From an uncultured virus (IMG/VR IMGVR_UViG_2846005711_000006) (taxonomy: Duplodnaviria; Heunggongvirae; Uroviricota; Caudoviricetes), in IMG/VR virus record IMGVR_UViG_2846005711_000006: DNA of 64,000 nucleotides; one strand, 5' to 3'. The notes beneath the pieces were generated by a model, which made no database searches, had not been told where the DNA came from, and saw nothing but the letters and a program-made list of their open reading frames with translations. Both the position numbers and the translations under genes were made by a program. This document shows, in pieces, positions 7,932-9,729 of the stretch (position 1 is its first letter; every line of letters starts with the position of its first letter).

Positions 7932-8873
7932 GGCGGGGTAATCTCCCCTGTACTTGCTAACTTGACCCTTGATGGTTTCGAAAATGTTATCAGTAAACAT
8001 TTCGGGAACAAGAAAACGCAAGAAATATGGTGTGCACGTGATTCGCTACGCGGATGACTTCATAGTAACTGGAAAATCAAAAGAAATTCTTGAGACTAAA
8101 GTTAAAAGGCTAGTAGAGGATTTCCTCAGCGACAGAGGGTTAACTCTATCCACAGGAAAAACCAAGATCACACACGTAGAACAGGGATTTGATTTTCTAG
8201 GTCAGACAGTACGAAAGGAAGATAATCATCAAACCTTCAGCAGAAAGTACAAACCGACTTCTGAAGCGCATCCGGTGCTTGATTCGTAAGAACTGCGCAG
8301 CAACCCAAGAAAAAGTAATAGAACTGCTCACACCTCAAATTCGAGGGTGGGTCTATTACCACAGGGGAATATGCGCAAGAAAAGCTTATGAGAAAGTGGA
8401 TTCTGAGATTTTTAAAGCCTTATGGCAATGGTCAAAACGCAGACACCCTAATAAAGGCTTACGCTGGATTAAGGAGAAATACTTTAAAACAAAAGAAGCC
8501 AGAAGATGGTGCTTTGCAGCGCTGACTAAGAATAAAGGTACAGTTGAGTGGAAGGAACTCTTTCAAGCAACAAGCGTACCAATTCGTCGCCACAAGAAAA
8601 TTCAAGCTGAGGCAAATCCCTACGATAAAGAATGGTATGCCTACTTTGAAAAACGTAGATCAAATAATCCTTCTCTTTATGAGGATGATAAGATATGATT
8701 AATGTTAATCCTAGTAAGGAATTTGAAATGCCAGAATATTTGAAGGAAGCTGTTGCCGGTTCTCGAGAAAAGGACTTAAGATGGCTCGAGCCGTATGAAG
8801 GGAAACTTTCAAGTACGGTTCCTAGAGGAGAGTTTAGTGGAAAATATCTCAGTCCACTAAACTCTTACTCGTT
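7932..8873 (+). mobile_element. 3' half of group II intron (RT fragment, maturase 8279-8698, DV, DVI), copy 2
   Basis: GGVISPVLANLTLDG at 7932, YADD at 8047; frameshifted; no HNH domain. Confidence 0.9.
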
Positions 8874-9729
8874 CAAAAGAATATTTGGCACTGAAAAAAA
8901 TAAAGGCATTCTTATCCACTTTCTCAATGACATTCTAGGCCTTACTGATGAAGCTAAAATAGAAAATGTGCAGTTTCTAAATCCCATTCAAAATCCTGAT
9001 ATTGCTGCTAAAAAGGAAAATATTGTTGATGTACTTTGTAGAGATTCTAAAGGTGTTCAAACAATTGTTGAGATGCAAGTCGCTAGAACTACTGGCTTCG
9101 AAAAACGTGCACAATACTATGCCGCCAAAGCTTATTCCAGTCAAGCTGACGTAGGTGGTCAATATCAAGATCTGAAGGAAGTTGTCTTTATTGCTATCAC
9201 TGATTTTATCCTATTTCCTAATAAACCAGAGTACAAATCCGATCACGTTACTCTTGATAGAAAAACATTTGAACATGACCTGAAGGACTTTAGTTTTACT
9301 TTCATAGAATTACCGAAATTCCCAAAAACACAAGAAGATCAATTAGAAAATATAGTCGAAAAGTGGTGTTATTTTTTTCGTTATGCAGGAGAAACAAGGG
9401 AAGAGGATCTAGATAAGATAGTTGGTAGTGACGTAATAATAAAACGAGCTTATGAAGAGATGAATAAGTTTAACTGGTCAGAAGAAGAATTACTAGCATA
9501 TGAGCAAAGGAAAAAACGTATAATGGATGAGATTGCTGCTTTTGCTGAAAAATTTGATGAGGGGCTTAGATTAGGTCAAGAAAAAGGTAGACTAGAAGGC
9601 ATCCAAATCGGCCATCAAAAAGGTAAAATTGAAGTCGCTAAAAACTCACTCAAGGCTGGTGTCTCTATTGATGTTATCGCTGAAATCACTGGCCTTTTGG
9701 TAGATGAAATCAAAAAGTTAAGGATTTAA
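8695..9729 (+). CDS. Rpn-family PD-(D/E)XK nuclease with intron-derived N-terminus (copy 2)
   Basis: Identical to 2571-3656 except for the C-terminal tail. Confidence 0.9.
   Translation: MINVNPSKEFEMPEYLKEAVAGSREKDLRWLEPYEGKLSSTVPRGEFSGKYLSPLNSYSFKRIFGTEKNKGILIHFLNDILGLTDEAKIENVQFLNPIQNPDIAAKKENIVDVLCRDSKGVQTIVEMQVARTTGFEKRAQYYAAKAYSSQADVGGQYQDLKEVVFIAITDFILFPNKPEYKSDHVTLDRKTFEHDLKDFSFTFIELPKFPKTQEDQLENIVEKWCYFFRYAGETREEDLDKIVGSDVIIKRAYEEMNKFNWSEEELLAYEQRKKRIMDEIAAFAEKFDEGLRLGQEKGRLEGIQIGHQKGKIEVAKNSLKAGVSIDVIAEITGLLVDEIKKLRI
8788..8870 (+). ncRNA. Group II intron domains V (8788-8821) and VI (8825-8870, bulged A 8867)
   Basis: 34-nt GAGCCGTATGAAGG-GAAA-CTTTCA-AG-TACGGTTC with AGC triad; DVI stem GAGTTTAGTGG/CCACTAAACTC. 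Confidence 0.9.

Follow-up and report, generated by a model that had tools for sequence, protein, structure and literature searches.

How can the catalytic 3′ end of a group II intron be read, without an interrupting stop codon, into the body of a nuclease gene? The question is raised by a locus in the record of an uncultured virus of the class Caudoviricetes (IMG/VR IMGVR_UViG_2846005711_000006), a stretch of 64,000 nt that was analysed as a whole and is called the window hereafter. At this locus, the open reading frame (ORF) for part of an intron-encoded reverse transcriptase (RT), or maturase, overlaps another ORF, which traverses domains V and VI (DV and DVI) of the intron and continues into rpn, a gene for a PDDEXK_2 nuclease of the Rpn family. 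A preliminary description made from the sequence of the window had proposed that such an intron supplies rpn with a replacement N-terminus. Comparison with relatives in other genomes demonstrates the anatomy of the element, its homing site in rpn, a mimicry of the Rpn start that is both non-random and conserved and, on indirect evidence, recent mobility. Taken together, the data make it probable that DVI is a selected, intron-borne surrogate of the Rpn N-terminus, belonging to an endonuclease-less group II intron that homes into rpn.

The intron and its homing site in rpn

Both intron copies in the window match the Rfam model RF00029 (Intron_gpII; 8786–8873 on the plus strand and 3478–3565 on the minus strand, model positions 1–77 of 77) with 54.0 bits against a gathering score of 40. 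This bears out the DV–DVI assignment of the preliminary description, whose coordinates for DV, DVI, the ORF, the overlap between RT stop and ATG and the mirror copy all proved correct. Domains I–III are missing from both copies, which are cut at 7941 and 4410; homology to full-length copies starts at 7941, equivalent to about position 1316 of the ~2250-nt intron, and the first ~1300 nt are gone. Since domains I–III are absent, neither copy is able to splice. The 5′ GUGYG end and domains I–III, lacking here, are present in ten full-length relatives, and the window copies are recognizable as remnants of a member of the group II introns. Related contigs of runs X5 and X12 carry 8-nt insertions relative to the window at 8007 and 8213; two 8-nt deletions in the window have therefore split the RT fragment into two ORF pieces, and its TGA stop (8696–8698) overlaps an ATG at 8695. 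The intact RTs of relatives consist of RVT_N, RVT_1 and GIIM, and a domain search detected no HNH domain in them, as had been claimed for the fragment in the window. The intron's 3′ end was placed at 8874 (...CGTTC), seven bases past the branch A and one base beyond the Rfam match, because the 5′ exon closes on a whole Phe codon and three ectopic copies keep the final C; the TT terminus at 8873 proposed earlier falls one base short.

Relatives were taken from G001, the nearest genome, and from a set of 60 genomes of the genus. The DVI of this intron is found in 4 of the 60 (Wolbachia), in 12 copies, to which the two of the window are added. Ten copies are full length (about 2250–2274 nt) and start with GTGCGAC or GTGTGAC. 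In seven of these, the 45 nt before the intron are the native start of rpn (one instance is M A L S K F L D A R N D Y A F), while the other three occupy unrelated 5′ sites that have in common an AAYGAT..TTT resembling an intron-binding site (IBS). At the 3′ junction, rpn follows in 10 of the 14 copies as (K/R)(R/L)IFGTEKN..., three copies are ectopic at non-rpn sites and one junction is masked by N. Joining the exons across the intron restores the family motif ...ND(I/Y)(A/S)F↓(K/R)RIFG (the arrow marks the junction) without gap or shift; the homing site therefore lies between rpn codons 15 and 16 (...AF↓KR...). By complementarity alone, AAAGGU at about nt 285, kept in 5 of 5 aligned lineages, and AUCGUU at about nt 250 are candidate exon-binding sites (EBS1 and EBS2, respectively). 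The preliminary description had predicted that the intron targets the 5′ end of rpn and had looked to full-length copies for the 5′ exon; both junctions agree with it.

Within one genome, the copies of the intron show 100% identity (2274/2274 and 2253/2253 nt), whereas the exons that flank them are unrelated or, as rpn, 79% alike, and by this indirect measure the intron is mobile, now or recently. The intron-less rpn of the window (59793–60764) is near-identical, from the junction onward, to P0006, a database protein that opens with 13 intron-coded residues, MGKYLSPLNSYSF. Only a few residues differ apart from a 36-residue gap in the GKIE repeat and, on alignment, the two are the empty and the filled allele of one gene. 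Most rpn copies are free of the intron, which occupies, for example, two of seven full copies in G001 and two of eight in G018. Because identical intron copies stand at three non-rpn sites without rpn, Rpn is not part of the mobile unit.

All 5′-truncated copies (window 7918–7945, L067 in G001, L068 in G050 and L099 in G062) start at the same RT codon, (Q)GG↓(I/V)ISPVLAN, where the arrow marks the breakpoint. The truncated Wolbachia copies have a common short upstream flank (...TTTGCAACATTGTTG), and the unrelated copy in G062, a metagenome-assembled genome (MAG), has a different one. The recurrent breakpoint falls on the RT motif of highest conservation and may reflect a recombination hot spot, an abortive stop of reverse transcription or some other cause. 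In L067 (G001:C1:886000-893000), a second group II intron of ~2.4 kb, of another family and with a GTGCGCC start and a broken RT-like ORF, sits inside DV of the truncated intron at the equivalent of window 8807/8808; L068 (G050) is similar, and this intron-in-intron arrangement is absent from the window.

The DVI peptide and the Rpn start

The window frame reads GKYLSPLNSYSF↓KRIFG, and the intron-less rpn at 59793 reads, in the same register, MALSKFLDPKNDIAF↓RRIFG. In the intron tail, (G)KYLSPLNSYSF↓KRIFG, the last 11–13 codons of the intron, which lie in the DVI loop and 3′ strand, mimic the lost Rpn start; the native Wolbachia form of this start is M..SKFLDPKND(I/Y/V)(S/A)F↓KRIFG in 106 of the 120 clusters listed. 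The likeness was scored with a position-specific scoring matrix (PSSM) built from 19 unique native 11-mers, against a background of 68,429 stop-free 11-mers from the six frames of the window. Except for the genuine rpn start (38.0), no other peptide of this background attains the 18.3 bits of the intron peptide, which is contained in both DVI copies. Since the junction fixes the register, the score requires no positional correction. The match of the DVI peptide to the Rpn start is beyond chance, and the common register with the start at 59793, pointed out in the preliminary description, is confirmed. KYLNPRINYVN (58571–58603, minus strand), the second-best unrelated peptide of the window, has stops on both sides and was dismissed as chance.

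The frame through DVI into rpn is open in 8 of the 10 rpn-linked copies, with ORFs of 329–397 aa. The earlier expectation of a frame that is always open and a 3′ exon that is always rpn held for these eight and for the 10 of 14 junctions mentioned above, and failed for two copies with an extra nucleotide and for the three ectopic ones. Among the clusters listed, 13 of 120 of the Wolbachia type open on the intron-coded peptide or on an ATG that lies in DV, several of them being annotated at NCBI as Rpn, with proteins that begin at the ATG of DVI, and 2 of 120 of the gammaproteobacterial (gamma) type also start with the intron-coded peptide. The invariant N-terminal residues L7 and P9 of the family are kept in all intron-coded forms aligned, and the conserved Leu is written CTC, CTT, CTG or TTA across lineages. 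This codon pattern points to a constraint on the protein rather than on the nucleotide sequence. Gene conversion from the 5′ exon, considered as a source of the mimic, fits ill with codon differences that are mostly synonymous.

Mimicry in other lineages

Public genomes and metagenomes were scanned with an exact 18-mer that extends from the DV 3′ strand to the DVI base, which yielded four informative groups; the exact 18-mer scan of viral contigs gave 0 stretches. In the gammaproteobacterial MAG G063 (L070/L085), DVI reads GTG-P-R-Y-L-D-P-R-N-P-L-L-I, followed by the exon KKVFGDHPHLLLSFLN, and an intron-less paralog reads M-S-K-Y-L-D-P-R-S-D-L-V-F↓KRVFGDHPHLLLSFLN; 13 codons lead to the junction in both, and the start codons are aligned. 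The intron-borne (GTG)PRYLDPRNPLLI↓KKVFG and the native MSKYLDPRSDLVF↓KRVFG of the same genome are written in codons that differ mostly synonymously (TTA/CTG, GAT/GAC, CCG/CCA, CGC/CGG, CTG/TTA). Natives of this gamma Rpn subfamily have the form M(P/S)RYLDPK.D.VF, with exactly 13 residues before the junction in 107 of the 120 listed. The distal part of the gamma-type DVI is an exact native start, MPRYLDPR (8 of 8 residues versus P0144); only the last five residues differ, and these are located in the basal helix and branch site. In metagenome contig L080 this intron, its DVI unchanged, stands at a non-rpn site; the mimic is therefore a property of the intron rather than of the exon.

In the second MAG, G062 (L069/L082), DVI reads M-M-A-Q-Y-L-C-P-S-V-P-L-L-F↓KKIFGVEENKDLLI, as compared with M-V-Q-K-I-N-P-R-V-D-I-A-F↓KKIFGVEENTDLLI in the native gene; the intron form is MMAQYLCPSVPLLF↓KKIFG and the native form MVQKINPRVDIAF↓KKIFG. 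When scored with the Wolbachia PSSM, the gamma peptide attains 11.4 (4 of the 68,429 background peptides as high) and the G062 peptide 0.3 (122 of 68,429). The peptides match their hosts: that of Wolbachia reaches 18.3 on the Wolbachia PSSM versus 6.3 on the gamma PSSM, and that of the gamma type 14.7 on the gamma PSSM versus 11.4 on the Wolbachia one. The replacement N-terminus originally proposed for the window, in frame in eight of ten rpn-linked copies, thus recurs in two unrelated MAG lineages outside Wolbachia. An outgroup intron (L077–L079) with the same DV and DVI base has a short DVI, no such coding segment and no rpn exon; DVI measures 48–54 nt in the rpn-targeting lineage versus 37 nt in this related non-rpn intron. 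Three other pattern matches (L075, L076 and L081) are not this intron: they lack an upstream DV and appear to be fortuitous.

RNA fold and translation signals

DV (34 nt) and a long DVI with a bulged A fold canonically in all six lineages. Among Wolbachia subfamilies the DVI helix covaries, the 3′ strand changing, for example, from CTA to TTG (Leu to Leu) and the 5′ strand from TAG to CAA or CGA. By these comparisons, the DVI sequence is under a double constraint, as ribozyme and as protein. Four of five lineages have, where the native gene starts, an ATG or GTG in the 5′ strand or loop of DVI, 5–9 nt after an AGGAGG at the DVI base that resembles a Shine–Dalgarno (SD) sequence.

In five of five lineages, one frame and no other remains open from the RT stop as far as the surrogate start. 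This bridging ORF begins at the RT stop or within a few bases of it (in G018 it is the RT frame itself) and ends in ATGA (G062), TAGTG (gamma type), ATGGGTAA (G057 type) or, in G018, a TAG that follows the ATG by 12 nt. In the window type, the ATG was lost when 1 nt of the DVI loop was deleted, a change that also fused this ORF to rpn; for this reason the 344-aa ORF opens at 8695. In shuffled sequences, a given frame is open before DV by chance with a probability of 0.06–0.19 per lineage. The arrangement suggests that a translational relay may lead from RT to Rpn.

At L063 (G018:C1:1435772-1439872; locus 1083-2780), the RT ORF lacks its usual stop and forms a 565-codon frame that runs through domain IV and DV into the DVI loop, where it ends 12 nt after the surrogate ATG.

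The Rpn protein and its expression

The 344-aa ORF matches PF12784 (PDDEXK_2) with 170.7 bits against a cut-off of 27.4, over profile positions 1–226 of 229, and profile position 1 aligns to ORF residue 54, already inside DVI. Its core acidic residues (invariant columns D67, D72, E81 and Q83) are present (IVDVLCRD...IVEMQ). An AlphaFold2 model of the native homolog P0013, built from 46 aligned sequences (mean predicted local distance difference test score, pLDDT, 84.1), places the junction in the middle of helix 1 (residues 12–19), after a confidently placed N-terminal segment. According to this model, an Rpn that started at codon 16 would lose the N-terminal segment and half of helix 1. A sequence search of the PDB found no solved structure, only a spurious repeat match to the C-terminal tail, which is helix–turn–helix-like. 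The native Rpn of the window contains about eight tandem GKIE tetrapeptide repeats near its C-terminal end (60510–60620), versus one in P0006; such variation in repeat number resembles that of E. coli rpn genes with intragenic antitoxins, as these are portrayed in the accessible text of PMC10400941.

The rpn exons downstream of introns evolve with a ratio of non-synonymous to synonymous substitution rates (dN/dS) of 0.11–0.14. The window and L067 copies, both behind the same unspliceable remnant, differ with dN 0.007 and dS 0.06, and their ratio of 0.12 reflects only ~15 substitutions, with gene conversion possible. Contigs from RNA libraries, which may be DNA-derived, cross the DVI–rpn junction in two runs of one study (7612–8884 and 7612–8947, 90–95% identity), and two further runs of uncertain type also contain the junction; the run data are contigs, in which uncovered stretches (for example 7970–8709 in X1) are not interpretable. 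A scan of 7500–9900 gave 5 promoter-like sites versus 6.7 expected and 0 terminators, and is silent on transcription. RT, intron and nuclease are not mentioned in the accessible text of the wStr proteome paper (PMC4701759), as judged by a term search.

Features of the window

The coordinates of the intron–rpn locus, its mirror copy and the associated genes are collected in Table 1.

Table 1. Location of the intron remnants, the rpn genes and neighbouring features in the window
Feature	Position	Strand	Basis and remarks
5′-truncated group II intron remnant	7941–8874	+	RT C-terminal half, 3′ part of domain IV, DV and DVI; full-length homology begins at 7941; 3′ end by junction alignments
Broken RT/maturase coding region	7969–8698	+	Pieces 7969–8289 (RVT_1, 45.2 bits, profile 142–205) and 8279–8698 (GIIM, 66.5 bits)
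Domain V	8788–8821	+	Rfam alignment; canonical 34-nt fold with 2-nt bulge
Domain VI	8825–8874	+	Bulged branch A 8867, intron end 8874; Rfam alignment, fold, compensatory helix changes among subfamilies
Surrogate Rpn N-terminus KYLSPLNSYSF (putative)	8842–8874	+	DVI loop and 3′ strand, in frame with 3′ exon
344-aa ORF	8695–9729	+	49-aa intron-derived leader, surrogate N-terminus, Rpn; free of stops across DV and DVI
rpn 3′ exon, PDDEXK_2 nuclease from codon 16 on	8875–9729	+	Pfam match, junction alignment, dN/dS 0.12 versus L067 copy
Mirror truncated intron remnant	3477–4410	−	DV 3530–3563, DVI 3477–3526; inverted repeat and Rfam match 3478–3565
Mirror 361-aa ORF (leader, surrogate N-terminus, Rpn)	2571–3656	−	C-terminus diverges past repeat end 2717
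Large serine recombinase gene, in pieces	4535–7960	+	Between inverted arms; Resolvase N-terminal domain 4838–5317, zinc-ribbon domain 7159–7614
Intron-less native rpn paralog, empty homing site	59793–60764	+	Reads MALSKFLDPKNDIAF↓RRIFG

The intron–rpn unit forms one arm of an inverted repeat that is 100% identical over 1717 nt (2717–4433 versus 7918–9634). An IS110-family transposase gene (5675–6874) interrupts the serine recombinase gene. The DNA of the window is Wolbachia-like, with a match to a Wolbachia small RNA (sRNA) family and protein relatives under Wolbachia names; the Rfam match is to WsnRNA59 (Wolbachia sRNA 59) at 27496–27584 on the plus strand, with 91.7 bits. A gene for Pyr_excise, a pyrimidine-dimer DNA glycosylase, lies directly downstream of the left rpn copy (1833–2558, minus strand), and cargo of this type is listed for PDDEXK_2 elements in the accessible part of PMC11342252. 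Outside both inverted arms, direct repeats (16–525 and 9909–10335, 79–86% identity) mark the 5′ ends of ORFs 461–1684 and 10326–11498, the latter encoding an ankyrin-repeat protein, which suggests a larger duplicated block around the recombinase locus.

Possible roles of the coding DVI

In the reading that we favour, the element belongs to an endonuclease-less lineage that retrohomes into rpn (PDDEXK_2) between codons 15 and 16, and its enlarged DVI does double duty, as branch-site helix and as a substitute, 13 codons long, for the Rpn N-terminus lost through the insertion. Ribosomes coming from the RT gene would open DV and DVI and re-initiate on the surrogate start. Rpn would then be made without splicing, by translation from the intron, and unspliced precursors or 5′-truncated copies that cannot splice, such as both in the window, could still yield Rpn protein. 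The bridging ORF in five of five lineages argues that this translation may be coupled to that of the RT. The benefit would be a host gene rpn that stays functional, and with it the persistence of the intron's niche. More tentatively, DVI may be a two-state element. When folded, it would act as the branch-site helix, and splicing of the RNA would give the mobile ribonucleoprotein and native rpn mRNA; when opened by ribosomes that follow the bridging ORF across DV, it would become an mRNA leader with SD sequence, start and 13 codons, giving Rpn with the surrogate N-terminus. The intron would thereby make of rpn an RT–Rpn operon under its own control, the host element would function even after an abortive, 5′-truncated insertion, and the intron would ride along as rpn spreads, for example in the RT–PDDEXK2 modules of Wolbachia cif islands.

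Several observations weigh against a translated surrogate. Only three independent lineages were found, with an exact 18-mer probe that favours close relatives. The last five surrogate residues deviate from the native ones, and the D or N that all native N-termini examined have at position −4 is replaced by S or P in the surrogate. In two of the ten rpn-linked copies, both in G057, one nucleotide is added at the junction, and one of these has a truncated rpn. As an argument against conservation of the frame this addition was set aside: it shifts the spliced product too, and the same paralog is in frame in P0014, so that it appears to be a local lesion. AGGAGG is also present in the non-rpn outgroup and was probably co-opted rather than evolved for translation; together with the start, it is buried in a stable helix (DV plus DVI, about −39 to −44 kcal/mol), which would hinder initiation. 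The window subtype itself has no start in DVI and carries a foreign 49-aa leader, and its RT is broken, so that coupling to the RT is moot there. The few substitutions behind the dN/dS of the window copy, the absence of any excess of promoter-like sites and the fact that the RNA-library contigs, consistent with transcription and no proof of it, are the sole evidence of expression point in the same direction.

Alternatively, the distal part of DVI may have been copied from the 5′ coding region of rpn, through a shift to a downstream 3′ splice site or by recombination, and may persist as RNA that is not translated. Such exon capture would be consistent with the identity of the gamma-type distal DVI to the native MPRYLDPR, with the deviation of the RNA-constrained basal part, which lacks the conserved D/N, and with the burial of start and SD-like sequence in a helix. 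Decay would then be expected; however, frame, 13-codon length and start position survive indels in three lineages, the differences from the natives are largely synonymous, with Leu in four codons, and the bridging ORF ends on the start in five of five lineages. We therefore regard an untranslated fossil as unlikely. The likeness might also have its function in RNA or DNA, DVI imitating the 5′ exon (in competition for EBS1/EBS2, or for target-site immunity) and the frame being incidental. Indeed, one natural 5′ exon (L059) ends in TCGTTC, the same six bases with which the intron closes, and the candidate EBS1 could pair with them. Yet the likeness is strongest upstream of the IBS region and is one of amino acids rather than nucleotides, as in the codon pairs of G063, and a role in RNA needs no in-frame starts at the native position, all of which renders such imitation quite improbable.

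The preliminary description had further suggested a composite of RT, ribozyme and Rpn, in which Rpn would travel along as a stand-in for the endonuclease of the intron or as an addiction toxin. The RT does lack an endonuclease (En) domain, and RT and PDDEXK_2 genes travel together in Wolbachia cif islands, as described in the accessible part of PMC13439711. Nothing indicates either role, however: no link connects Rpn activity with mobility, both exons flank the intron as in ordinary homing, and neither the identical intron copies at three sites without rpn nor the occupation of only two of seven (G001) and two of eight (G018) rpn copies is what a composite would predict. Such an element is, in our estimation, very improbable. 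That an ordinary DVI resembles the Rpn N-terminus by chance is effectively refuted; the peptide is short and its residues are common in AT-rich DNA, but the empirical tail is ~1 in 68,000 in a fixed register, and the resemblance is repeated in two further lineages (4 and 122 of 68,429, as given above).

The usual view of bacterial group II introns is that they persist because they avoid genes or splice efficiently. The surrogate N-terminus favoured here appears to offer a third route, a protein-coding copy of the displaced exon piece inside a catalytic RNA helix. If true, it would provide a clear example from nature of a single sequence constrained jointly as ribozyme and as protein, and a new mechanism by which a retroelement neutralizes its own insertion. 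The group II intron RT and the PDDEXK2/Rpn transposase found at cif islands, Octomom and WO prophages form, at least for this intron family, a nested unit with the intron inside rpn rather than a pair of neighbours, and some Rpn entries in the databases start on intron sequence.

Comparison with known systems

The endonuclease-less intron RmInt1 homes into the transposase gene of an insertion sequence, and introns of its type share with the rpn intron an RT without an En domain and the use of a multi-copy mobile-element gene as homing niche. To our knowledge, no exon-mimicking coding segment is known for RmInt1-type introns. A search of the literature returned no account of rpn being interrupted by an intron or of a DVI with coding function, and an earlier report of the homing site could nevertheless exist.

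In Wolbachia, a group II intron RT beside a PDDEXK2/Rpn transposase has been described for cid islands, the flanks of Octomom and WO prophages (PMC13439711, PMC9203015, PMC11342252, PMC12445526). The gene pair is the same as in the window, as are the prophage WO setting and the recombinase, ankyrin and Pyr_excise neighbours. The accessible passages of these papers, however, treat RT and PDDEXK2 as separate neighbouring mobile elements, and none of them places the intron inside rpn or an Rpn start in DVI. The nuclease side has its own precedent in the recombination-promoting Rpn (YhgA-like) nucleases with intragenic antitoxins (PMC10400941, PMC5350276), and the gene in the window is also annotated as Rpn family. 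As far as the available text of these sources goes, E. coli Rpn corresponds to Pfam Transposase_31, whereas the window gene is PDDEXK_2, and the alternative product in E. coli is a C-terminal antitoxin, whereas the window gene would receive an alternative N-terminus from the intron.

Variation at the 3′ end of group II introns includes alternative 3′ splicing, repeats of DV and DVI (B.a.I2 and C.te.I1) and 3′ extensions in the form of a domain VII (PMC4424553). As is proposed for the rpn intron, changes at the 3′ end of B.a.I2 and C.te.I1 alter the protein made from the downstream exon. In the accessible part of that account, these introns act by splicing to alternative sites, whereas for the rpn intron we propose a translation start inside the unspliced intron.

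The closest concept in print is that of the groEL intron clade, in which, according to the part of the report available, insertion swaps the interrupted stop codon from UAA to UAG (PMC12584367). Both introns home site-specifically into a coding gene and, as described for groEL and proposed here for rpn, leave the host ORF intact without splicing. The groEL type is found at the initiation or termination codon of a housekeeping gene, whereas the rpn intron follows codon 15 in the gene of a multi-copy nuclease of mobile or defence type. Where the groEL intron supplies a single codon, the rpn intron would supply an SD-like site, a start and 13 codons, all within the DVI helix.

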